Shown here: piece after piece, positions 10,772 through 64,000 of the stretch | How the letters are laid out: every line of letters starts with the position of its first letter | Position numbering within the stretch: the stretch's first letter is position 1 | Assembly: GCF_004010195.1 (NCBI RefSeq) | Contig: NC_057712.1 | Span: 81,428,696-81,492,695 of the forward strand | Direction of reading: 5' to 3' | Length of the DNA: 64,000 bases | Source: Chiloscyllium plagiosum | Taxonomy: Eukaryota | Program-made: the position numbers and the translations under genes | The notes under the pieces: model-generated | Told to the model about the DNA's origin: nothing | The model's database searches: none | Seen by the model: the letters and a program-made list of their open reading frames with translations, nothing else

Positions 10772-11955
10772 TTTGGGGCACCTTTCACAAGAGTCTTGAT
10801 TGATTGGGTAGATCCCCTGCCTCAACAAAAAGTGGAAATAAGTATTTATTAACATGTATGTATTTTGAACTTAGATTTCAGAGGCAATCTCATTACGCAT
10901 CATCACAGCTAAAAGGATTGTAGAAGAATTATTTACATTTTTTATCAGATGTATACTACCAATAGAGAGCCAGTCAGTTCAAGGATTAACTTTCACATCC
11001 AGACTATTCAAGGAGATTATGGATAACGTGAGAATAAAGCAATTCAAATCTACTGCGTACCATCTGGAATCACAGGGAGTGCTAGAGAGATGGCATCAAA
11101 CACTAAAGACCACGTTGAGGGCTTATGGTCAGGATATATCCAGATGATTGGGATAAGGGAGTTCTGTTTGTACTTCTTGTGATCAGAGATGCACCGAATG
11201 AATCAACCAAATTCAGTCCATGTAAATTAATTTTTGGGCATGATATAACAGGACCGTTAAAATTGATTAAGGAGAAATTAATAAGGCAGAATTCAGAGAC
11301 ACTATGTCAAATTTTAGAGAACGATTAAATAGAACTGGAGAGTTGGCTAGACAGCATCTAGACGTTTCACAGCATATAATGAAACAGGAAGTGGATAACA
11401 AAACACAAATTTGCAATTTTGGAATTGGGGATAAGGTATTGGTGTTACTTCCAGTGACAGGTGAACCTTTAAAAGCTGGGTTTAGTGGACCTTATCAAAT
11501 TGAGAGGAAATTGAGTGAGATGAACTACTTGATAAGGACTCCTGACTCCAGAAATCTCACAGAGTATGTCATTTGAATATGCTCAAAAGGTATTCTGAGA
11601 GAGAAGGAAAGCAAGAGAAGAAGGTGTTAATAATTACAGCACAGAAGGAAGGGCCAAGTTCAGAGGATTCTGAATTAGACATTCCTCAAACCAAATTGGA
11701 CGATGCGGAAGTTGTCACAAATTGGGACAAATTATAGAGTTACCTTCCACAAGGAAATCAAAATGACCTGAAAGGAGATATGTGGAAATAACTGGGAAGT
11801 ACTACCTAATTGTGTATAATGTAGATATAGGAGGTGCTGTTCTGCTTAAGCAACACCTTATAGGCATAATCCTCTAAAGTTGGCACAGGTTCAGAAGGAG
11901 ATAGAGCGCATGCTCCAAGATGGCATAATCTAAGTGCGTTACAGTGAGTGGAGCT

Positions 11956-11993
11956 GATTCCTGAAGAAGGGCCTGTGCCCGAAATGTCGAATC
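11956..11993 (+). ncRNA. Minimal type I hammerhead ribozyme motif
   Basis: GAUUC (stem I) CUGAAGA A GGGC-CUGU-GCCC (stem II) GAA A-UG-U C GAAUC (stem I'). Core boxes are intact, stem I is a perfect 5 bp, and predicted cleavage is after C11988. The stem III palindrome ACGU is mutated to AUGU. Confidence 0.75.
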
Positions 11994-12087
11994 TCCTGTT
12001 CCCTGGATGCTGCCTGACCTGCTGTGCTGTTCCAGCAATAAAGTTTCAACTTTGATCTCCAGCATCTGCAGACCTCACTTTCTCCTC
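11956..12087 (+). mobile_element. Penelope-like pLTR fragment inserted in RT, TSD GGAGCT
   Basis: Interrupts the RT WSSP motif; GGAGCT at 11950-11955 and 12088-12093. Related to the pLTR attached to the Penelope endonuclease remnant at 38651-39091. Confidence 0.85.
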
Positions 12088-13495
12088 GGAGCTCACCTTA
12101 TCGTCATGGCGCCAAAGCCAGATGGTACCCAACGGTTATGTGTGGACTATCGCAAAGTCAATGCTGTTACAGAGATAGAGCGCATGCTCCAAGATGGCAT
12201 AATCTAAGTGCGTTACAGTGAGTGGAGCTCACCTTATAGTCATGGCGCCAAAGCCAGATGGTACCCAACGGTTATGTGTGGACTATCGCAAAGTCAATGC
12301 TGTTACAAAGACAGTTAGAGGACTGTGTCTAAAAAATGGGACAAGCAACTTACATTTCTAAGTGGGACTTGCTCAGAGGCTACTGGCAAGTACCTATGTC
12401 AGAGAGAGCAAAGGCAATTTTGGCTTTTGTAACACCAAATGAACTATATCTGTTCAAAGTCATCCCAACTGGTATGAAAAACTTTTCAGAGACTGACTAA
12501 TAAGGTCATTGCCGGATTACTCAACTGTGTGATGTATATTGATGACCTGCTGATTTTTAGACACTTTTGGAAGGAACATTTACAGTGTTTATGAGACTTA
12601 TTCAATCAACTTCAGAAGGCAGGCTTGGTGGTAAACCTAGCTAAAAGGGAATTTGCCAAAGCCCAAGTCACCTTCCTGGACCATGTTATTGGACATGGAC
12701 AAATGGCCCCACGATGAGAAAATGAAAGTAATTGGGGATTTTCCACACTGTTGACAAAAACGCAGTACTATGGGATTGAGTGGATTTTACTGAAAGGTTG
12801 CGCCGAACTTAAGCAGTGTGGTTGTTCCACTCACCGAATTGTTAAAAAAGGGCAAGACGTTTCAGTGGACAGCAGACTGTCAAAAGGCATTTGACAGCAT
12901 AAAAACTGTGTTAACCTCTACCCCAGTATTAGCCACATTGGATTACACGAAGCCTTTCAAGGTGGCTTTCGATGCCAGTGATTTGGGTGTCAGTGCATTG
13001 CTCTTGCAGATGGATGACGAGGGAATAGAAAGACCCATCGGGTATTTTTCCAGGAAGTTGAACGGTCATCAACAGAAATATTCACCAGTGGAGAAAGAGA
13101 CTTTAAGCTCTTTACGACATTTCAGTGTTTATATTAACAGCATTGCATCTGAGACAATCATACACACTGATCATAACCCATTGACATTTATGGGATAATT
13201 TAAGGACAAAAATGCCAGACTGTTTAGGTGGAGCTTGTTGTTGCAGCCATTCAATTGTGCATGTGGCAGATTGTGAAAACGTGATTGCCATTGTGTTATT
13301 GAGACTCGAATGAGACACGGAGATGTTTGCTGGCAAGTGTGCCACAGCCTTAATTCGAATATGGTTGAGCATGTTTGCATGTGTACAGTTAGTATAATGT
13401 CTATGTGCGTTTAGGCTACTAACCGGGTCTTTGAATGTTTTTAAAAATAAAGCCATCTTTTGGTATTGATGGTTCATTTTTTTTAAGCGAGGTGG

Positions 13496-34490: not shown

Positions 34491-34920
34491 GAAACTAATA
34501 TTTTGATCTAATGTTACACAAACAATTGAAAAATAAGGATACATCTTATTATTTAAATTTAATTAATTTGCTGAAAAGCACTCTCTGTAATCTGGAGGAA
34601 TTTCCAATATTATAGATTAAATGTCAATAACCTTCTCCATTGCACCAGCATAAGTGACAAAATCTTCTGTTCAGGACATCTCACTCATTCTAACTCTGTT
34701 ACTGTTGTCACCTCCAATCTAGTCTCATTCTCTACCATTCTCATTATTTCCTGCAATGCCTTCCATCTCTCGCTGTCACTGAGCCCAACCCCTGACGCTC
34801 TAACCCTGCTAATCAATTGCTTGGGACATCTCCCTACCTGCAACAAAAGTAACAGCTCAGCTGTGCACTTTTATCTCCTTTAAAATATGTGTCTGATATT
34901 CAAGAGGAAAACAACTCACA

Positions 34921-35052
34921 ATTTTTAATCATTCATGGAATGTAGGCATCACTGGCTGGGCCAGCATTTATTGCCCAGGGAGCAGTTAAGAGTCAGCCAC
35001 ATTGCTGTGTGTCTGGATTCACATGGAGGTTAGTCCAGGTAAGAATGGCAGG
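34921..35052 (-). mobile_element. SINE 3' fragment sharing a CR1-clade tail (SacSINE/DeuSINE-like, family name tentative)
   Basis: Reverse complement CTTACCTGGACTAACCTCCATGTGAATCCAGACACACAGCAATGTGGCTGACTCTTAACTGC...GGGCAATAAATGCTGGCCCAGCCAGTGATGCCTACATTCCATGAATGA. Confidence 0.6.
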
Positions 35053-35239
35053 TGAGAAAAGTGGCTAGTTTCCCAACGGTGTATCCCATGGAGATCTGTC
35101 TGCTAGTTAGATGGGGAAATTCTTGCTCCAATCTGGGGCAATGTTAGACATGGATGTGGGACAATGAAGTTGCCTAGGAAAGTCACTCCCTTGCCCTTGT
35201 CTGTGACAACCATCTCCATTCTACAAAAAAAAATAAAAA

Positions 35240-35501
35240 GATATAATTATTATCCCTGAATATGTCCTGTTCTACCAGCAAGACAAACCTAACAGAGATA
35301 TTAGCAAAAATTATTACAGTCAGGGGTTGCCTTGGGAATCTTAAACAATGATTTGGATGCCATGAAGTCTCTTGTGATTACAACGTGCTGCCACCCTCTT
35401 CAGATGATGAATCAGTGCACCTCCATGTTGAACATCACTTGAAGAAAGCACTAAGTGCGCCAATGTTCTGCAGGGGCAGTGGCCATCAACAAGAATGGCT
35501 C
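35240..35501 (+). mobile_element. CR1-clade LINE ORF2 endonuclease, left flank of the array
   Basis: Remnants IIPEYVLFYQQDKPNRD, ITT..PPSSDDESVHLHVEHHLKKAL, HQQEWL running directly into the first array unit GNITTDRNDPVL. Confidence 0.8.
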
Positions 35502-35802
35502 GGCAACATCACTACTGACCGAAATGATCCAGTCCTCAGCTTCATCACTACTGATCGAAATGATCCAGTCCGCGGTACCATTATTACTGATCGAAATAAT
35601 CCAGTCCGCGGTACCATTATTACTGATCGAAATAATCCAGTCCGCGGTACCATTACTATTGATCGAAATTATCCAGTCCTCAGCACCATCCCTACTGAGT
35701 GAAATGATCCAGTCCTCAGTACCATCACCGCTGATTGAAATGATCCAGTTCTCAGTGCCATCATGACTGATTGAAATGATCCAGTCCTCCATATCATCAT
35801 TA

Positions 35803-35938
35803 CTGTGTGTCTGGATTCACATGGAGGTTAGTCCAGGTAAGAATGGCAGGTGAGAAAAGTGGTTAGTTTCCCAATGGTGTATCCCATGGAGATCTGTCTG
35901 CTAGTTAGATGGGGAAATTCTTGCTTCAATCTGGGGCA
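35803..35938 (+). repeat. 136-bp copy of the upstream flank (35005-35140) embedded in the array
   Basis: Identical to 35005-35140 except for three C/T differences. Confidence 0.95.
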
Positions 35939-37710
35939 CCATCACTACTGATCAAAATGATCCAGTCCTCAGCATCTTTCACTACTGATCGAAATGATCC
36001 AATCCTCAGTACCATCATTACTAATTGAAACAATCCAGTCCTCAGTACAATCATGACTGATCGAAAGATCCAGTCCTAAATACAATCATGACTGATTGAA
36101 ATGATCCAGTCCTCCTTATCATCATTACTGATCAAAATGATCCTGTCCTCAGTACAATCACAACTGATCAAAATGATTCAGTCCTTGGTACCATCAATAC
36201 TCATCGAAATAACCCAGTCCTCAGTACAATCATAACTGGTTGAAATGATCCAGTCCTTGGTACCATCACCACTGATCAAAATTATCCAATCCTCATTATC
36301 ATCACGACTGATCAAAATGATCCAGTCCTCGGTATCATCACTACTCATTGAAATGATCCAGTCCTCAGTACAATCACGACTGATCGAAATGATCCAGTCC
36401 TCAGTATCATCACAATTCATTGAAACGATCCAGTCCTCAGTACAATCATGACTGATTAAAATGATCCAGTCCTTGGTACAATCACTACTGATTGAAATGA
36501 TCAGTCCTTGGTACAATCACGACTGATCAAAATGATCCAGACCTCGGTACGATCACCACTCATTGAAATGATCCAGTTCCTCAGTACCATCACAACTGAT
36601 CGAAATGATCCAGTCCTTGGTACAATCGCTACTGATCAAAATGATCCAGTCCTCGGTACGATCACTACTCATCGAAATGATCCAGTCCTCAGTACCATCA
36701 CTACAGATCGAAAGATTCAGTCTTTGGTATCATCACTACCGATCGAAATGATCCAGTCCTCTGCACCATCACAACTGATTGAAATGATAAGTCCTCAGTA
36801 CAATCACAACTGATCGAAATGATCCAGTCGTCGGCACCATCACTACTGATTGAAATGATCCAGTCCTAAATACCATCACTACTGATTGAAATGATCCAGT
36901 CCTTTGTACGATAACTAGTCATCGAAATGATCCAGTCCTCAGTACCATCACTACTGATCGAAATAATCCAGTCCTCAGCACCATCACTACAGATCGAAAC
37001 GATACAGTCTTTGGTACCATTACTACCGATCGATGTGATCTAGTCCTCTGCACCATCACTCCTGATCAAAACGATCCAGTCCTCAGTAGCATCACTACGG
37101 ATTGAAATGATCCAGCCCTCTGCACCATCGCGACTGATCAAAATTATCCAGTCCTCGGTATCATCACTACTCATCGAAATAATCCAGTCCTCAGTACAAT
37201 CATGACTGATCGAAATGATCCAGTCCTCAGTACCATCACTCCTGATCAAAATGATCCAGTCCTCAGTAGCATCACTACGGATCGAAATGATCCAGCCCTC
37301 TGCACCATCGCGACTGATCAAAATGATCAGTGCTCGGTACAATCACGACTGATAAAAATGATCCAGTCCTCAGCAACGTCATTACTGATCGAAATGATCC
37401 AGCCCTCGGTACCATCACAACTAATCAAAATGATCTCGGCCTCAGCAAGATCACTACTAACCGAAATGAACCAATCCTCAATACCATCCTTACTGATCGA
37501 AATGATACAGTCCTTAGTGCCCTCATGACTGATTGAAATGATCCAGTCCTCCTTATCATCACTACTCATCAAAATAATCCAGTCCTCAGTACAATCACGA
37601 CTGATCAAAATGATCCAGTCCTCATTATCATCACGACTGATCAAAATGATCCAGTCCTCATTATCATCACTACTGATTGAAATAATCCAGTCATCGGCAC
37701 CAACACTACG

Positions 37711-37817
37711 GAAACGTCGATTCTCCTGTTCCCTGGATGCTGCCTGACCTGCTGCGCTTTTCCAGCAACACATTTCCAGCTCTGATCTCCAGCATCTGCA
37801 GAACTCACTTTCTCCTC
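37711..37817 (+). mobile_element. Penelope-like pLTR fragment inserted in the array
   Basis: GAAACGTCGATTCTCCTGTTCCCTGGATGCTGCCTGACCTGCTGCGCTTTTCCAGC...CAGCATCTGCAGAACTCACTTTCTCCTC, a close relative of 11956-12087. Only the 3' half of the hammerhead is present. Confidence 0.85.
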
Positions 37818-38650
37818 AAAATGATCCAGTCCTCAGTATCATCACTACTGATTGAAATAATCCAGTCATCGGCACCAACACTACGGATCAAAATGATCCA
37901 GTCTTTGGTACCATCACAACTGATTAAAATGATCAGTCCTCAATACAATCACGGCTGATCAAAATGATCCAGTCCTCTGCACCATCAACTACTGATCGAA
38001 ATGATCCAGTCCTCGGTACGTTCACTACTCATCGAAACGATCCAGTCCTCAGCACCATCACTATGGATCGAAATGATCCAGTCTTTGGTACCATTACAAC
38101 CTATTGAAATGATCCAGTCCTCTGCACCATCACTCCTGATCAAAATGATCCAGTCCTCAGTACCATAACTACAGATCGAAATGATTCAGCCCTCTGCACT
38201 ATCGCGACTGATCAAAACGATCCAGAACTCAACACCATCACTACTGATCAAAATGATGCAGCCCTCAGCACCATCATTACTGATCAAAAGGATCCAGTCC
38301 TCTGCACCATCACTACTGATCGAAATGATCCAGTCCTAAATACCATCACTACTGATCGAAATAATCTAGTCCTCGGTACGATCACTACTTATCAAAATGA
38401 TCCAGCCCCCAGTTCCATCACTACTGATCGAAATGCTCCATTCCTCGGTACGTTCACTACTGATCAAAATGATCCAGTCCTCAGTACCATCGCTACTGAT
38501 CTAAGCGATCCAGTCCTCGGCACCATCACTATGGATCGAAACGATCCAGTCTTTGTTACCATTACAACCAATCGAAATGATCCAGTCCTCTGCACCATCA
38601 CTCCTGATCAAAATGATCCAGTCCTCAGTACCATAACTACAGATCGAAAT

Positions 38651-39091
38651 GAGGTAAAAACAATGACTGCAGTTGCTGGAAACCAGATAACTGGATCAGT
38701 GGTGCTGGAAGAGCACAGCAGTTCAGGCAGCATCCAACGAGCAGCGAAATCAACGTTTCGGGCAAAAGCCCTTCATCAGGAATAAAGGCAGTGAGCCTGA
38801 AGCATGGAGAGATAAGCTAGGGGAGGGTGGGGGTGGGGAGAGAGTAGCATAGAGTACAATGGGTGAGCGGGGGAGGAGATGAAGGTGATAGGTCAGGGAG
38901 GAGAGGGTGGAGTGGATAGGTGGAAAAGGAGCTAGGCAGGTCGGACAAGTCAGGACAAGTCATGGGGACAGTGTTGAGCTGGAAGTTTGAAACTAGGATG
39001 AAGTGGGGGAAGGGGAAATGAGGAAGCTGTTGAAGTCCACATTGATGCCCTGGGGTTGAAGTGTTCCGAGGCGGAAGATGAGTCGTTCTTC
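38651..39091 (-). mobile_element. 5'-truncated Penelope-like element: end of GIY-YIG endonuclease, pyrimidine-rich UTR and pLTR
   Basis: Minus strand EERLIFRLGTLQPQGINVDFNSF fits the Penelope endonuclease C-terminal E..I..L.T..P.G.N motif, followed by a C/T-rich tract, the hammerhead motif and the GGATGCTGCCTGAACTGCTGTGCTCTTCCAGCA tail. Confidence 0.85.
38748..38783 (-). ncRNA. Minimal type I hammerhead ribozyme motif
   Basis: Minus strand AUUC CUGAUGA A GGGC-UUUU-GCCC GAA ACGU U GAUU. Canonical CUGAUGA/GAAA core, palindromic ACGU stem III, cleavage triplet GUU, weak stem I. Confidence 0.7.
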
Positions 39092-42000
39092 CCCAGTACG
39101 ATCACTACTCATCAAAATGATCCAGTCCTCAGTACCATCACAACTGATCGAAATGATCAGTCCTCGGTACAATCACGACTCATCAAAATGATCCAGTCCT
39201 CTGCAACATCACTACTGATCGAAATCATCCAGTCCGAGGTATGATCACTACCCATCAAAATAATCCAGACCTCGGTACCATCACTACTGATCGAAATGTT
39301 CCAGTCCTAAATACCATCACAACTGATCGAAATGATCCAGTCCTCGGTACGAGCGCTACTCATCGAAATGATCCAGTCCTTTGCACCATGACGACAGATT
39401 GAAACAATTAAGCCCTCCTTACCATCACTACTGATCGAGTTGATCCAGTCCTTGGCACCATCACTACTGGTCCAAATGATGCAGTCTTCTTTACCATCAC
39501 TACTCATCGAAATGATCCAGTCCTCTGCATCATCAATACTGATCCAAATGTTCCAGTCCTCGGCACCATCACTACTGATCGAAATGATCCAGTCCTCAGA
39601 CCATCACAACTAATCGAAATGATCCAGTCCTAGGTACGATCACTACTCATCAAAATCAACCAGTCTTCGGTACCATCATTCTGATCGAAATGATCCAGTC
39701 CTAAATACCGTCACTACTGATCTAAATGATCCAGTCCTCAGCACCAGCAGTATTGACCCAAATGATGCAGTCTTCAGTACCATCACTACTCATCGAAATG
39801 ATCCAGTCCTCTGCACCATCAATACCGATCGAAATGATCCAGTCCTCGTTACGATCACTACTCATCAAAATGATCCAGTCCTCTGTAACATCACTACTGA
39901 TCGAAATGATCCAGTCCTCTGCACCATCACTACTGATTGAAATGATCGAGCCCTTGCTGCCATCGGTACCAATACTTCTGATCAAAATGATCCAGTCCTC
40001 TGCATCATCAATACTGATTGAAATGATCCAGTCCTCGGCACCATCAGTACTGATCCAAATGATGCAGTCTTCGGTAACATCAGTACTCATCGAAATGATC
40101 CAGTCTTCTGCACCATCGATACTGATCGAAACGTTCCAGTCCTCGGCACCCTCAGTACTGATCAGTATCATCCAGTCTTTTGCAACATCAGTACTGATCA
40201 AAATGATCCAGTTCTCAGCACCATCAGTACTGATCAAAATGATCCAGTCTTCGGCACCATCAGTACTGATCGAAATGATCCAGTCCGCGGAACCTTCATT
40301 GCTGATCGAAATGATCCAGTACGTGGAACCATCACTACTGATCGAAATGATCAAGTTTTTGCTACCATCACTACTGATCGAAAGGATCCAGTCCTCTGCA
40401 ACATCACTATTGATCGAAATGATCCAGTCCTCAGTGCGATGAATATAATCAAAATGATCCAGTGCTAAGTACCATCTCTACTAGTCGAAATGATCCAGCC
40501 CTCAGCATCAACACTGCTGATCGAAATGATCCAGTCCTCTGCACCATCGCTACTGATCAGATGGTCCAGTCCTCAGTACAATCATGACTGATCGAAATGA
40601 TCCAGTATTCGATACCATCACTACTCATCGAAATGATCCAGTCCTCGGTACAATCACGACTGATTGAAATAATCCAGTCCTTGCTACCATCACTACTGAT
40701 CAAAATTAACCAGTCCTCATTATCATCACGATTGATTGAAATGATCCAGTCCTCAGCATCATCCTACTCATCGATATGATCCAGTCCTCAGTACAATCAC
40801 GACTGATTGAAATGATCACTCCTCAGTACAATCACGACTGATCGAAATGATCCAATCCTCGACACAAACTACTGATCGAAATGATCCAGTCCTCGATACG
40901 ATAACTTCTCATCGAAATGATCCAGTCCTCAGTACCATCACTACTGATCAAAATGATCCAGTCCTCAGTACCATCACTACTGATCAAAATGATCCAGTCC
41001 TCGATACCATCACTATGGATCGAAATGATTCAGTCTTTGGTACCGTCAGTACCGATTGAAATGATCCAGTCCTCTGCACCATCACTACTGATCGAAATGA
41101 TTAGGTCTCGGTACAATCACGACTGATCGAAATGATCCAGTCATCAGCATCATCACGACTGATCGAAATGATCCAGTCCTCTGCACCATCAGTACTGATC
41201 AAAATAATCCAGTCCTCAGCACCATCAGAATTGATCATAATAATCCAGTCCTCAGCACCATCAGAATTGATCATAATGATCCAGTCCTCAGCACCATCAC
41301 TACTCATCGAAATGATCCAGTCCTCTGTAACATCACTACTGATCGAAATGATCCAGTCCTCTGCACCATCACTACTGATCGAAATGATTGAGCCCTTGCT
41401 ACCATCAGTACCATCAAAACTCATCGAAATGACCAGTCCTCTGCATCATCAATACTGACCCAAATGTTCCAGTCCTTGGCACCATCACAACTGATTGAAA
41501 TGATCCAGTCCTAGGTACGATCACTACTCATCAAAATGATCCAGTCTTCGATACCATCACAACTGATCAAAATGATCCAGTCCTAGGTATGATTACTACT
41601 CATCAAAATGATCCAGTCCTCGGCACCATCAATACTGATCGAAAATATGCAGTCCTCAGTACCATCACTACGGATCAAAATGATCCAGCCCTCTGCACCA
41701 CCGCGACTGTTCAAAATGATCAGTCCCTGGTACAATCACGACTGATCAAAATGATCCGGTCCTCGGCACCATCACTACTGACATCACTACTGATCGAAAT
41801 GATCCAGTCCTCTGCACCATCACTACTGATCGAAATGATCCAGTCCTCTGCACCATCACTACTGATCGAAATGATCCAGTCCTCTGCACCATCACTACTG
41901 ATCGAAATGATCCAGTCCTCTGCACCATCACTACTGATCGAAATGATCCAGTCCTCTGCACCATCACTACTGATCGAAATGATCCAGTCCTCTGCACCAT

Positions 42001-45000
42001 CACTACTGATCGAAATGATCCAGTCCTCTGCACCATCACTACTGATCGAAATGATCCAGTCCTCTGCACCATCACTACTGATCGAAATGATCCAGTCCTC
42101 TGCACCATCACTACTGATCGAAATGATCCAGTCCTCTGCACCATCAGTACTGATCAAAATAATCCAGTCCTCTGCACCATCAGAATTGATCATAATGATC
42201 CAGTCCTCAGCACCATCACTACTGATCGAAATGATCCAGTCCTCAGCACCATCACTACTGATCGAAATGATTAGATCTCGGTACAATCACGACTGATCGA
42301 AATGATCCAGTCCTCTGCACCATCAGTACTGATCAAAATAATCCAGTCCTCTGCACCATCAGAATTGATCATAATGATCCAGTCCTCAGCACCATCACTA
42401 CTGATCGAAATGATCCAGTCCTCTGTAACATCACTACTGATCGAAATGATCCAGTCCTCTGCACCATCATTACTGATCGAAATGATCCAGTCCTCTGCAC
42501 CATCATTACTGATCGAAATGATTGAGCCCTTGCTACCATCAGTACCATCACTACTCATCGAAATGACCAGTCCTCTGCATCATCAATACTGACCCAAATG
42601 TTCCAGTCCTTGGCACCATCACAACTGATTGAAATGATCCAGTCCTAGGTACGATCACTACTCATCAAAATGATCCAATCTTCAGTACCATCATTACTGA
42701 TCGAAATGATGCAGTCCTCGTACCATCACAACTAATCGAAATGATCCAGTCTTAGGTACAATCACTACTCATCAAAATGATCCAGTCTTCGGTACCATCA
42801 ATACTGATCGAAATGGTCCAGTCCTCGGCACGATCAGTACTGATCGAAATGATCACTCCTCAGTACAATCATGACTGATCAAAATGATCCAATCCTTGGC
42901 ACCATCACTACTGATCGAAATGATCCAGTCCTCAGTACGATCACTTCTCATCGAAATGATCCAGTCCTCAGTACCATCACTACTGATTGAAATGATCCAG
43001 TCCTCGGTACAATCAACACTCATCGAAGTGATCCAGTCCTCTGCACCATCACTACTGATCGAAATGATCGAGCCCTTGGTACCATTGGTACCATCACCAC
43101 AGATCAAAATGATCCAGTCCTCTGCACCATCACTACTGATCAAAATGATCCAGTCTTCGGCACCGTCAGTATTGATCCAAATGATGCAGTCTTCAGTACC
43201 ATCACTACTCATCGAAATGATCCAGTCCTCTGCACCATCAATACTGATCGAAATGACCCAGTCCTTGGCACCATCAGTACTGATCGAAATGATCCAGTCT
43301 TCGGCACCGTCAGTACTGATCCAAATGATGCAGTCTTCGGTACCATCACTACTCATTGAAATGATCCAGTCCTCTGCACCATCAATACTGATCCAAATGT
43401 TCCAGTCGTCGGCACCATCACAACTGGTCGAAATGATCCAGTCCTAGGTACAATCACTGCTCAAGATGAACCAGTCTTCGGTACCATTACTGCTGATCGA
43501 AATGATCCAGTCCTAAATACCACCACTACTGATCGAAGTGATCCAGTCCTCTGCACCATCAATACTATGCATCAAAATGATTCAGTCTTCGGTACCATCA
43601 CTACTGAAAGAAATGATCCAGTCCTCTGCATCATCACTACTGATCGAAATGATCCAGTCCTGTGCACCATCAATACTGATCGAAATGATCCAGTCCTCGG
43701 CACCCTCAATACTGATCGAAATGATCCAGTCCTCGGCACCATCAGTACTGATCGAAATGATCCAGTCCTCTGCGCCATCACAACTGATCAAAATGATCCA
43801 GTCCTCTGCACCATCACAACTGATCGAGATGATCACTCCTCAGTACAATCACGACTGATCAAAATGATCCAATCCTCGGCACTACTGATCGAAATGATCC
43901 AGTTCTCGGTACGATCAATTCTCATCGAAATGAACCAGTCCTCTGCACCATCACCACTGATCGAAATGACCCAGTCCTCGGTACGATCACTACTCATGAA
44001 AATGATCCAGTCCTCGGCACCATCAGTACTGATCGAAATGATCCAGTCAACGGCACCATTATTACTGATTGAAATGATCCAGTCCTTTGCATCATCAATA
44101 CTGATCAAAATGATCCAATCCTTGGTTCCATCATTACTCTTCGAAATGATCCAGTCCTCCTTACAATCGCTACTGATCGAAATGATCCAGTCTTCGGTAT
44201 GATCACTACTGATCAAAATGATCCTGTCCTTGGTACCATAATTACTGATCAAAATGATCCAGTCCTTCTTACCATCACTACCGATTGGAATGATTCAGTC
44301 TTCGGTATGATCACTACTGATCAAAATGATCTAGTCCTTGGTACCATCACTACTGATCGAAATGGTCCAGTCCTAAATACCATCACAACGGATTAAAATG
44401 ATCCAGCCCTCCTTACCATCACTACTGATCCAAATGATGCAGTCTTCTGCACCATCAATACTGATCAAAGTGATCCAGTCCTCGGCACCATCAGTACTGA
44501 TCCAAATGATTCAGTCTTCGGTACCATCACTACTCATCGAAATGATCCAGTCCCCTGCACCATCAATACTGATCGAAATGATCCAGTCCTCTACACCATC
44601 ACAACTGATCAAAATCATCCAGTCCTTTGCACCATCAGTACTGATCAAAATGATCCCGTCCTCGGCACCATCTGTACTGATCAAAACGATCCAGTCCACG
44701 GAACCATCAAAGCTGATCGAAATGATCAAGTCATTGCTACCATCAGTACTGCTCAAAATGATCCGGTCCTCGGCATCATCAGTACTGATCGAAATGTTCC
44801 GGTTCGCAGCACCATCACTACTGATCGAAATGATTGAGTCGTTGCTACCATCAGTACTGATCAAAATGATCCAGTCCTGGGCATCATCAGTACTGATCGA
44901 AATGATCCAGGCCACGGAACCTTCAGTGCTGATCGAAATGATCCAGTCCGCGGAACCATCACTACTCATCGAAATGATCCAGTCCCCTGCACCATCAATA

Positions 45001-48000
45001 CTGATCGAAATGATCCAGTCCTCTACACCATCACAACTGATCAAAATCATCCAGTCCTTTGCACCATCAGTACTGATCAAAATGATCCCGTCCTCGGCAC
45101 CATCTGTACTGATCAAAACGATCCAGTCCACGGAACCATCAAAGCTGATCGAAATGATCAAGTCATTGCTACCATCAGTACTGCTCAAAATGATCCGGTC
45201 CTCGGCATCATCAGTACTGATCGAAATGTTCCGGTTCTCGGCACCATCACTACTGATCGAAATGATTGAGTCGTTGCTACCATCAGTACTGATCGAAATG
45301 ATCCAGTCCTGGGCATCATCAGTACTGATCGAAATGATCCAGGCCACGGAACCTTCAATGCTGATCGAAATGATCCAGTCCGCGGAACCATCACTACTCA
45401 TCGAAATGATCCAGTCCCCTGCACCATCAATACTGATCGAAATGATCCAGTCCTCTACACCATCACAACTGATCAAAATCATCCAGTCCTTTGCACCATC
45501 AGTACTGATCAAAATGATCCAGTCCTCAGCACCATCAGTACTGATCAAAACGATCCAGTCCACGGAACCATCACTGCCGATTGAAATGATCGAGTCATTG
45601 CTACCTCTGATCAAAATGATCCGATCCTCGGCATCATCAGTACTGATCGAAATGTTCCGGTTCTCGGCACCATCACTACTGATCGAAATGATTGAGTCGT
45701 TGCTACCATCAGTACTGATCGAAATGATCCAGTCCTGGGCATCATCAGTACTGATCGAAATGCTCCAGGCCACGGAACCTTCAGTGCTGATCGAAATGAT
45801 CCAGTCCGCGGAACCATCACTACTCATCGAAATGATCCAGTCCTCTGCATCATCAATGCTGATCCAAATGTTCCAGTCCTCGGCACCATCACAACTGATC
45901 GTAATGATCCAGTCCTAGGTACGATCACTACTCATCAAAATGATCCAGTCTTCAGTACCATCACTACTGATTGAAATGATCCAGTCCTAAATACTATCAC
46001 TACTGATCAAAACGATCCAGTCCTAAATACTATCATTACTGATCGAAATGATCCAGTCCTCGGTACGATCACTACTGATCGAAATGATCCAGTCCTCGGT
46101 ACGATCACTACGGATCAAAACGATCCAGTCTTTGATACCATCACTACTGATCGAAATGACACAGTCCTCTGCACCTTCACTCCTGATCAAAATGATCCAG
46201 TTCTCAGTACTATTACTACGGATTGAAATGATCCAGCTCTTTGCACTATTGCGACTGATCAAAATGATCAGTCCTCGGTACAATCACGACTGATCAAAAT
46301 GATCCAGTCCTTGGTATGATCACTAATCATCAAAATGATCCAGTCTTCGGTACCATCACTACTGATCGAAATGATCCAGTCCTAAATACCATCACAACTG
46401 ATCAAAATGATCCAGTCCTCCGTACGATCACTACTGATCGAAATGATCTGGTCCCAAATACCATCACAACTGATCAAAATGACCCAGTCCTCGGTACGAT
46501 CACTACTCATCGAAATAATCCAGTCCTCGGTACGATCACTACTCATCAAAATAATCCAGTCCTCGGTACGATCACTACTCATCGAAATAATCCAGTCCTC
46601 GGTACGATCACTAATCATCGAAATGATCCGGTCCTCGGCACCATCACTACGGATCGAAACGATCCAGTCTTTGATACCATCACTACTGATCGAAATGACA
46701 CAGTCCTCTGCACCTTCACTCCTGATCAAAATGATCCAGTTCTCAGTACTATTACTACGGATTGAAATGATCCAGCTCTTTGCACTATTGCGACTGATCA
46801 AAATGATCAGTCCTCGGTACAATCACGACTGATCAAAATGATCCAGTCCTTGGTATGATCACTACTCATCAAAATGATCCAGTCTTCGGTACCATCACCA
46901 CTGATCGAAATGATCCAGTCCTAAATACCATCACAACTGATCAAAATGATCCAGTCCTAAATACCATCACAACTGATCAAAATGATCCAGTCCTCCGTAC
47001 GATCACTACTGATCGAAATGATCTGGTCCTAAATACCATCACAACTGATCAAAATGACCCAGTCCTCGGTACGATCACTACTCATCGAAATAATCCAGTC
47101 CTCGGTACGATCACTACTCATCGAAATGATCCAGTCCTCTGCACCATCACTACCGATTGAAATGATCCAGTCGTCAGCACCATCACAACTGATCAAAATC
47201 ATCCAGTCCTTTGCACCATCACTACTGATCGAAATGATCCAGTCCTCAGCACCATCACTACTGATCGAAATGATCCAGTCCTCTGCACCATCATTACTGA
47301 TTGAAATGATTGGGCTCTTGGTACCATCGGTACCATCACTACTCATCGAAATGATCCAGTCCTCTGCATCATCAATACTGATCCAAATGTTTCAGTCCTC
47401 GGCACCATCACAACTGATTGAAATGATCCAGTCCTATGTACGATCACTACTCATCAAAATGATCCAATCTTCGGTACCATCACTACTGATCGTAATGATC
47501 CAGTCCTCGTACCATCACAACTGATCGAAATGATCCAGTCCTAGGTACGATCACTACTCATCAAAATGATCCAGTCTTCGGTACCATCACAACTAATCGA
47601 AATGATCCAGTCCTAGGTACGATCACTACTCATCAAAATGATCCAGTCCTCGGCACCATCAATACTGATCGAAACAATCCATTCCTCAGTACCATCACTA
47701 CGGATCGAAATGATCCAGTCCCCTGCACCATCTCTACTGATCAAAATGATCCAGCCTCAGTACCATCATTACTGATCAAAAGGATCCAGTCCTCAGCATC
47801 CTCACGACTAATCAAAATGATCCAGTCCTTGGTACCATCACTACGGATCGAAATGATCCAGCCCTCGGCACCATTATTACTGATTGAAATGATCCAGTCC
47901 TTTGCATCATCAATACTGATCAAAATGATCCAGTCCTTTGCACCATGATGACGGATCGTAATGATCCAGCTCTCCTTACCATCACTACTGATCCAAATGA

Positions 48001-48728
48001 TCCAGTCCTCTGTACCATCAATACTGATCGAAGTGATCCAGTCCTCTGCACCATCAATACTGATCCAAATGATACAGTCCTCTGCACCATCAATACTGAT
48101 TGAAGTGATCCAGTCCTCTGCACCATCAAAACTGATCCAAATGATCCAGTCCTCTGCACCATCAATACTGATCAAAATGATCCAGTCCTCAGCACCATCA
48201 GTACTGATCAAAATGATCCAGTCCTCAGCACCATCAGTACTGATCAAAATGATCCAGTCCTTAGTACCATCACTACTGATTGAAATGATCCAGTCCTCAG
48301 TGTGATGACTACGATCAAAATGATCCACTCCTTGACACCATCACTACAGATCAAAATGATCCAGTCCTCTCCACCATCACTACAGATCGAAATGATCCAG
48401 TCCTTTGCACCATGACGACTAATCGAAATGATCCAGTCCTTGGTACCATCATTACCGATCGAAATGATCCAATCCTCTGTTACATCACTACTGATCGAAA
48501 TGATCCAGTCCTCGGCATCAACACTACGGATCGAAATGATCCAGTCCTTGGTACCATCACTACTGATCAAAATGATCCAGTCCTCGGTACCATCACTACT
48601 GATCGAAATGATCCAGTCCTCTCCATCATCAATACTGATCAAAAGCATCCAGTTCTCAGTACCATTACTACTGATCGAAATGATCCAATCCTCAGTAGGA
48701 TCACGACTGATCAAAATGATCCATCCTA

Positions 48729-49565
48729 AAGTTAATTGCTCGTAGACTGCAGCAGGTAGTCATTGGACCAACAAGAGCGAGAATACTACTTGATCTCATC
48801 CTCAGCAATCTACTTGTGACAGATGTCTCCATTATGACAGTGTTGCTATTTATTTTCATAAGTCACATTTCGCTTGGTTGATTGATTTAAGTTCCCAAAT
48901 TGGACAGTTATGGCAGATTGCATTATGAAACAGTGACTATTTTTGCAAAAGAAAATTAGTCACCAGTGAATATTGGACTGAATTTTAAGATGTTGTCCTG
49001 TGGCTCCAATTATTTGATGAATCACTTTGCAAAGTGATCATTACATTGTGGAAACAACATCCAATTTTCACACTGACGATACCCTCCATCCTGTTCCGAG
49101 GCGCTATCACTGTCCCAAATGGCATATATTTTGAATATATCCAGAACTCAAAACTACGCATCCATGAGCTGCTGTAGACTACCAGCAGCAGAAGAAATGT
49201 ATTCAACTATAGTCTGTAACCACATGGCCAGGGCGTATCGCCCTCTCCAATTACCATCATGCCAGAGCATCTACCTGAAAAATGCAGGAGAGCATGCTAA
49301 GAGTACAACTGCAAGAAGCAGCACCAGGCATACATAAAAATGAGGAGTCAACCAAGGGAAGATACAAACACTACTGCATGTGGAATAGGCCAACCGCCTA
49401 TAGTTGCTTCATTAATGATCTTTCCTCCAATGCCAGATCAGATACAGGGATGTTTGTAGACAAATGCAAATGTTCAGTAACATTTGCAACTCTTCAGATT
49501 TTAACGAAATATGGAAAATATATCCAGGCTTGGGTTGCTATTTGGTAAGTAGAATTTGCACCAAT
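48729..49565 (+). mobile_element. CR1-clade LINE ORF2 continuing right of the array (endonuclease end, linker, RT piece; deleted and interrupted)
   Basis: KLIARRLQQVVIGPTRARILLDLILSNLLVTDVS immediately after the last unit, then IVETTSNFHTDDTLH..RYHCPKW, QNYASMSCCRLPAAEEMYSTIVCNHMAR, QEAAPG/HQAYIKMRSQP, SCFINDLSSNARSDTGMFVD and IQAWVAIW. Confidence 0.85.
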
Positions 49566-63320: not shown

Positions 63321-63659
63321 ATATTCAGTTTTTTTTTAAAAGTTATGCACTTAAATGAGAAGGAATAGTTTTAAAACCAATATTTTGAAAGGAAGACTAT
63401 ACAGTTTGAAAGCACGTAGCCTGACGCTCATGGCAAATATTGTAAATAACTGTTTGAACAAGCAATAATTGAAGTGGTTGGAGTCAAACTGCAGTTGAGT
63501 TTTGTATTCAGATGCAGTTTTATTCAGATTGATCTGTCTACTAGTGACCAATTCCGAATGATAAGCCTTTTGCTTGCCAAGAATCATGTGATTGTTTCTA
63601 AATAAGTAAACAGCTTGAAGTTGGAAGGGTGACAGAGTGGGTTTTGATCTCCACCAGCT

Positions 63660-63946
63660 CAGGCACATGGGATCAATATAGATTTCACCAGTTTCCTCAT
63701 TTCCCCTCCTCCCACCTTATCCCAGATCCAACCTTCCAACTCGGCACGACCCTCATGGCCTATCCTACCTGTCCATCTTCCTTCCCATCTATCCTCTCCA
63801 CCCTCCTCCCCGATCTATCACCATTACCCCCACCTTCATCTACCTGTTGCACTCTCAGCTATCATGCCACCACCCCACCCCCCTCCCCGTCCCACCCTCC
63901 CTCCTACTTATCTCTCCACCCCCTTGGCTCACTAGCCCCAGTTCCT
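63660..63946 (+). mobile_element. Penelope-like element 3' UTR fragment
   Basis: GGGATCAATATAGATTTCACCAGTTTCCTCATTTCCCC (GINIDFTSF) plus a C/T-rich tract homologous to the reverse complement of 38790-39055. It stops at TTCCT, where the hammerhead would begin. Confidence 0.8.
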
Positions 63947-64000
63947 CAGATGATGTCTTATCCACTGTCATTCTTTTTAATGAGGCTACCCCGTTACTCA

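Follow-up and report, generated by a model that had tools for sequence, protein, structure and literature searches.

The window analysed here is a 64,000-nt stretch of the genome of Chiloscyllium plagiosum (NC_057712.1:81,428,696-81,492,695, forward strand), and all coordinates below are positions within it. Its plus strand carries a 36-bp tandem array of about 345 units (35502-48728, 13.2 kb), which lies between two halves of a decayed long interspersed nuclear element (LINE) copy. The array was delimited with Tandem Repeats Finder (TRF), tiling and genome-wide motif searches, and occupies one locus in the assembly. TRF placed it at 35507-48727, with a period of 36, 365.8 copies by length, 76% matches and a score of 11522. 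Tiling against the first natural unit gave 354 slots, nine of which were dropped (six covering inserts and three with more than three gaps); the remaining 345 are real units, where a preliminary description of this locus gave about 350. The mean pairwise identity among units is 79%.

The array is entered in the frame of the LINE endonuclease. The frame from 35202 reads SVHLHVEHHLKKALSAPMFCRGSGHQQEWL and continues as GNITTDRNDPVL at 35502-35537, so that in translation HLHVEHHLKKAL...HQQEWL leads straight into GNITTDRNDPVL. This plus-strand segment was recognised as the first unit by translation and family alignment, and its left birth junction reads CT/C-GGC (a slash marks the junction). The last unit (48694-48728, plus strand) has a 1-bp deletion and ends at the right birth junction CT/A-AAG, as in the LINE family; past it the sequence runs on as KLIARRLQQVVIGPTRARILLDLILSNL from 48729, followed by LINE linker and reverse transcriptase remnants. 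Entry, exit and the preservation of both birth junctions had all been read correctly in the preliminary description, apart from the base missing from the last unit.

Position 36 of the unit distinguishes the two borders. It is A in 40/46 rows of the family alignment, whereas 319/354 array slots have C or T (the CpG-decay product), matching the left border. Some units had been said to carry the ending of the right junction, and GTCCTAAA is indeed present in 13 internal units. A36 is followed by AA in 14/339 junctions (the terminal unit perhaps included) against 1.3 expected if the two were unlinked; 13 of these read CTA/AAT and resemble the right border. The same linkage would also follow from a single old event or from a pair of point mutations that were amplified jointly. 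The preliminary description also contrasted GACCGA in the first unit with GATCGA in almost all others. This holds for the T at unit position 18 (337/345 units) but not for the hexamer, as GATCGA occurs in only 128/345 units and its place is taken by GATCAA in 79, GATTGA in 32 and CATCGA in 29. As a candidate for the ancestral state, GACCGA has evidence on both sides: T18 is the family majority (33 T vs 7 C among 46 rows), yet C18 is present in natural copies, accompanied in 4/7 of them by A5, and the first unit has both.

The parent copy survives as a series of plus-strand remnants. The left one (35246-35501) is a decayed part of the endonuclease open reading frame (ORF), collinear with family copies and off the family column majority at 61/254 bases. 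The copy begins at 35246, and 12- and 6-bp deletions have taken out its GDFN region, with a 35-bp deletion upstream. To the right of the array, the endonuclease continues as KLIARRLQQVVIGPTRARILLDLILSNL (48729-48848; 34/120 bases off the majority). It is followed by a non-LINE insert of about 200 bp (48849-49045, no strand assigned), at a place where family copies have only about 20-40 bp, and for which no blastn match was obtained in the fetched loci. A linker remnant (49046-49382; 68-75% identity to other copies, 79/312 bases off the majority) precedes a reverse transcriptase remnant (49386-49563) located past an internal deletion of about 0.9 kb at about 49383: the match to family copy L069 jumps there from 1836 to 2748, and the counterpart in copy L051 lies in a PF00078 ORF. 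The parent element had been called intact, which does not fit a copy that is about 25% decayed, has lost GDFN and bears both this insert and this deletion. In total it departs from the family column majority at 174/686 sites (25%), compared with a family median of 13.6%, and this excess may partly reflect an older subfamily. Differences at the first, second and third codon positions number 16/22/23 in the left flank, 7/13/14 in the right flank and 30/26/23 in the linker, i.e. they fall on all three positions, as expected for neutral decay.

DNA searches of the same genome with each flank returned dispersed copies with about 68-76% identity over the longer matches. The family alignment contains 49 copies (L002-L020 and L043-L072), none dropped and including some near-duplicate pairs, to which the window pieces were added separately. 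Family copies match PF14529 (L014, E 2e-8; L050, E 3e-9; L052, E 6e-8) and PF00078 (L051, E 2e-15), thus the parent family is an APE-type LINE, with an endonuclease upstream of the reverse transcriptase. None of the window's three short pieces matched a Pfam family by itself (0/3), and these were assigned to the LINE by DNA collinearity. The homologue search gave ten unnamed or uncharacterised proteins, the best being a protein of Heptranchias perlo (68%), while a PDB sequence search gave only five chance kinase matches (E 0.6-0.7). A protein search for an intact ORF2 yielded none at E 1e-20 among 1516 longer candidates, which is weak evidence.

Of the 37 family copies with readable upstream DNA, 13 (L002, L011-L014, L045, L047, L049, L054, L060, L065, L066 and L070) have a short interspersed nuclear element (SINE)-like segment in sense orientation no more than 450 bp ahead of the endonuclease. 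ARAGORN predicted no tRNA in any of 12 loci. Upstream of the parent in the window there is a high-copy SINE/LINE-tail-like repeat in antisense orientation (34930-35050, minus strand), with a summed contig depth of 1e4-6e5 over 34917-35040 in 4/4 runs; we take it to be SacSINE1-like. The preliminary description placed the parent in the CR1 clade; CR1 and L2 are both candidates. If the family is the partner LINE of SacSINE1, the relevant parts of two papers would make it CR1-4_DR-like (PMC3747384) or L2-2_CM (PMC5499810). Another copy of the family has a 24-bp tandem array of 12.8 copies directly upstream (L050:509-798; G000:C10, approximately 2470640-2470930). This array occupies the position expected for the SINE-like head, one of its units has 12 bases in common with that head, and it too may have grown in place.

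By the preliminary description, the 36-mer should have a counterpart in the LINE, and other copies do carry one: 31 of the 45 copies spanning the site have exactly 36 bp there (range 0-42). Two separate searches, one with the first unit and the end of the flank before it and the other with the last unit and the flank after it, landed on one and the same 36-bp site (e.g. L002 1606-1636; likewise in L003, L016, L050 and L072). TRF detected no array at the counterpart site in any of the other family loci (0/71). Identical arrays at many loci with unrelated flanks would also have refuted the preliminary reading, but across 3.56 Gb all 68 exact hits of a 23-base motif lie inside the array, and the reversed motif, used as a control, gave none. 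For a 30-mer with up to three mismatches, 209 of 211 hits fall in the window, and the one outside hit listed is the plain LINE copy L072.

A two-unit pattern gave 63 hits, of which 62 lie here and one in G000:C101976. The latter had been a candidate second array from the same LINE site and was rejected as an unrelated minisatellite; it is another 36-bp repeat (L041:4039-5900; 52 copies, 92% matches) without LINE register.

With both junctions in register and the motif confined to this locus, the sequence comparisons support the original proposal that a single endonuclease segment was amplified where it stood. We estimate the probability that the array grew in place from one segment of the surrounding LINE copy at roughly 0.88.

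The units also suggest when this would have happened. Seven unit positions (5, 8, 22, 23, 26, 29 and 30) have a majority base in the array other than that of the family (in 288-343 of 354 slots), as does the polymorphic position 3. None of the 45 spanning copies has more than three of these eight differing positions (position 3 included). The first and the last unit each have six of the seven private changes, and those in the end units alter amino acids. Among junction-matched copies, of which 16/22 were located in what is a probe-biased sample, A22, A23 and C29 were each seen once, and A26 was seen three times. The private changes amount to 7/35 positions, or 20% (95% interval 8-37%), which is near the 25% of the flanks; the distance of the units from their own column majority is 12.6%, which falls to 8.8% once CpG-prone columns and position 3 are left out. 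Because most units and both end units share the private changes, it is likely that most of the decay of the LINE copy preceded duplication of the unit.

A course of events can be proposed on this basis. It begins with the decay of the LINE copy, whose flanks now differ from the family majority by about 25%, with changes at each of the three codon positions. The 36-bp segment would already have carried six or seven private changes when it was duplicated. The first duplication would then have been a polymerase slip or template switch across a 2-bp microhomology, CT being the only sequence shared at a 36-bp offset in both the family and the window. Such a duplication would leave internal junctions of the CTC/GG type and a family-type CTA/AAG at the right end, as seen, and one resolved within the shared CT would give the C or T at position 36 inside the array.

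Hairpin-driven expansion was considered and rejected. The unit can form a weak stem, but the mean folding energy of 310 full units is -2.3 kcal/mol, compared with -2.5 for 37 family counterparts, and 12.6% of 500 shuffles folded at least as well as a common unit.

Subsequent growth appears to have been uneven along the array. Each unit has 2.0-2.3 nearest-neighbour differences in the leftmost 5.7 kb and in the final 1.1 kb; in the stretch between, the figure is 0.7-1.5. The interior contains three plus-strand blocks: a recently homogenised run of about 13 near-identical units (41765-42244; lag-1 identity 98.6%), a 12-unit (432-bp) higher-order block in about three copies (44520-45845; 17 consecutive units at lag 12, 98.7%) and a 15/16-unit higher-order duplication (46062-47139; ten units at lag 15, 97.5%, and five at lag 16, 98.3%). 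Several unit variants are dispersed across the whole array. As the ends are old and the interior holds young 1-, 12- and 15-unit blocks, the pattern points to stepwise growth, presumably through successive rounds of slippage together with unequal exchange.

The array is broken by three inserts (141, 105 and about 440 bp) that are absent from the preliminary description. The 141-bp insert lies in the ninth unit (35798-35938, plus strand) and is a copy of the upstream flank: 137/141 bases are identical to its source at 35000-35140 (plus strand), and microhomology is present at its left (CATT.CTG) and right (GGCA) borders. We read this copy as the product of two template switches at this locus. 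The 105-bp insert (37711-37815, no strand assigned) derives from the tail of a different, young repeat; it shares 98% identity with a copy in L011 and 82% with DNA beside the GIY-YIG ORF of L074. The insert of about 440 bp (38651-39090, minus strand) is a fragment of a GIY-YIG-encoding repeat, with 75% identity over 24 amino acids to ORF L074:867-1334 (PF01541), which lies shortly outside the window. We assume that both belong to a Penelope-type element. These two GIY-YIG-related fragments entered the array later. A GIY-YIG-encoding repeat (PF01541) related to them is also found at 63600-64000 of the window and at L074:393-1563.

A bolder version of this history, which we offer only tentatively and consider somewhat doubtful, is that a dead LINE copy seeded the array late in its decay and that, while it grew, the array took up pieces of its own flanks again and again through template switches. 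If this were true, the locus would be a complete and datable record of the birth, and the 141-bp copy and the 13 CTA/AAT junctions would be flank captures. The paralogous copies and an array present in three species would then allow birth, capture and block duplication to be put in order directly.

Words of the left flank were detected in 20/24 runs, with organisms B and C at 33-37% of words, and contigs of four of the 24 runs were compared over 34700-35609. Organism B (X12) provided one 691-bp contig extending from 35000 through units 1-3 (35000-35609), with 26 letters differing (4.3%). In organism C (X17 and X18), a 129-bp contig reaches into unit 2; both runs contain the right-hand junction of the 141-bp insert, and X18 contains the left-hand one. 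Organisms A and C differ at 16/468 sites (3.4%). Since organism C has the left part of the array together with the 141-bp insert, the array carrying this insert predates the A/C split. In the proposed course of events, at least the left part of the array already existed when the lineages of two relatives, now 3-4% distant, split off, and other repeats landed later. A mutation rate of 7e-10 per generation is given for the epaulette shark in part of PMC10587355; dates are expressed here in substitution units.

Other origins and roles have to be weighed against growth in place. The array might have been made at insertion, by reverse transcriptase stutter or a template jump on the LINE RNA, and homogenised later. 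Many transposon-derived repeats have been suggested to start during retrotransposition (Ahmed and Liang, in part of PMC3389668), homogenisation does happen in the array, and the window LINE copy has many deletions. However, six private amino-acid-changing differences are found in both end units, the units lie 9-13% from their own column majority while the flanks lie 25% from the family majority, and 0/71 other loci have a duplication at the counterpart site, all of which makes such an origin improbable. Still less credence can be given to a mobile or multi-locus satellite that was born in another LINE copy and converted or inserted here by homology. Although assemblies are generally known to miss or collapse satellites often, no donor was found in 3.56 Gb, and both junctions are exactly in register with the flanks.

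Retention of the array for a function is just as improbable, whether it would encode a Thr-rich repeat protein in the former endonuclease frame or act as a CpG-rich element with a regulatory role. The unit does comprise 12 codons, the left part of the array is common to three species, CpG observed/expected is 0.72 in the array vs 0.20 in the rest of the window, and the human CACNA1C 30-mer array is described in part of its source as an enhancer (10.1101/311795). Yet each of the six frames contains 213-316 stops (the longest open stretch is 513 codons), many units shift the frame, three inserts interrupt the array, and the CpG excess is explained by repeated copying of CpG-bearing units. No host-gene Pfam domain exceeded the cut-off in 64 ORFs of at least 95 amino acids from the window and 10 kb on either side, apart from a borderline collagen repeat in L074. 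The scan covered 64 of 66 listed ORFs, omitting two that overlap the array, and at this size short exons would escape it; the 64 ORFs have retrotransposon domains and otherwise weak or borderline matches. The array is most likely neutral, with no sign of function.

Several points weigh against growth in place after late birth. The array length and the near-identical blocks rest on one assembly, and unassembled or collapsed arrays may exist elsewhere. Each DNA search scored 40 candidates only, out of 323 for one flank and 572 for the other. The private changes could also have been spread by homogenisation that extended to both edges, which means that late birth is not proven. The 886 family columns contain 48 runs of at least 2 bp at a 36-bp offset; matches of this kind are so common that nothing singles out the site, and the birth step is one that we infer. 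The more diverged family copies share 14-25% of the window flank differences and most others 4-10%, and the family used as a yardstick may be a younger subfamily. The evidence from the relatives covers the left end of the array.

Further repeats were recorded in the window and in the fetched loci. Remnants of a long terminal repeat (LTR) retrotransposon, with an RNase H domain (PF17919, E 1e-27) and a weak integrase C-terminal match, occupy 11271-13195 of the window. The borderline collagen repeat is a match exactly at the cut-off (27.2 bits) in a 241-aa low-complexity ORF (L074:5851-6573), probably a read-through tandem repeat. A 33-bp minisatellite of 28 copies, with open frames on both strands, follows a LINE copy at L047:2379-3301. 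An 84-bp repeat of 6.7 copies (L092:2463-3027) resembles what we take to be a C2H2 zinc-finger array.

The preliminary description called the array a satellite. A period of 36 in head-to-tail order falls within the 10-100 bp unit size of minisatellites or variable number tandem repeats (VNTRs), whereas classical satellite families are very long or multi-locus, and here there is one 13.2-kb locus in the assembly; its unit size and its single locus make it a minisatellite, though a very long one. In the survey of Ahmed and Liang, as described in parts of PMC3389668, a repeat is assigned to a transposon family if its unit is at least 70% similar to that family or if the overlap is at least one period. 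The first unit is off the family majority at 9/36 positions (75% identity), and the array lies inside a LINE copy. Its units are also closest to each other genome-wide (68/68 exact hits, and 209/211 with up to three mismatches), which places it in the single-locus class of the same authors; their 95% unit-identity filter would drop most of an array with 79% identity. The array is therefore a large single-locus transposon-derived minisatellite, a case added to a known class that introduces no new principle. It had been presented as an unusually clear record of origin; clear it is, but the human catalogue of transposon-derived tandem repeats runs to thousands.

According to the same parts of that survey, there are 7,276 human transposon-derived tandem repeats, 601 of them from L1, and 5,747/5,932 clusters are single-locus (PMC3389668). 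As here, an internal piece of one copy was duplicated locally and expanded, mostly without flanking direct repeats. The human repeats average about 144 bp each (computed as 1.05 Mb/7,276) under a filter of at least 95% identity, while the present array has 13.2 kb, about 345 units and 79% identity. Larger published transposon-derived cases may exist, the human supplementary table having been covered in small part. In the Haber-Louis model, as described in parts of PMC6947457 and PMC3389668, minisatellites are born between direct repeats of 5-10 bp, in contrast to the mere 2-bp CT found here. The birth of minisatellites is still poorly understood: the two standard models explain only 6% of transposon-derived cases in this one human survey (parts of PMC3389668).

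Like this locus, the chicken HinfI and Cen repeats (CR1) and hamster PROsat (L1 ORF2) consist of tandem DNA that is related to LINE coding regions. In the available portions of PMC9659126 and PMC6947457 these are satellite families known by their LINE similarity, whereas here a short unit stands at one locus between the halves of its parent. The same portions report minisatellites grown inside Alu, B1 and MaLR elements. Human single-locus VNTRs reach up to about 300 copies in the reference (part of 10.1101/2021.03.25.437092). Titles and the beginnings of abstracts, with subscription journals mostly outside this scope, contained no description of this locus or of a shark LINE-derived array.

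The CACNA1C VNTR, as described in part of 10.1101/311795, resembles the present array in that a short unit (30-mer) expanded in place at a single locus, that its variants are structured and that a CpG falls on the junction between units; it spans from 3 to more than 30 kb. Its unamplified state is known from the chimpanzee and the array is an enhancer, whereas here the pre-amplification state comes from paralogous LINE copies. In that portion of the source the CACNA1C unit is not called transposon-derived; the array described here is common to three species. Because both junctions are kept, dozens of unamplified paralogous copies are available, the size is far above average and at least three species share it, this locus is well suited for working out in what order birth, flank capture and block duplication took place. 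What stands out against the known systems is its size, its two junctions in register, its probable late birth and its three-species record.

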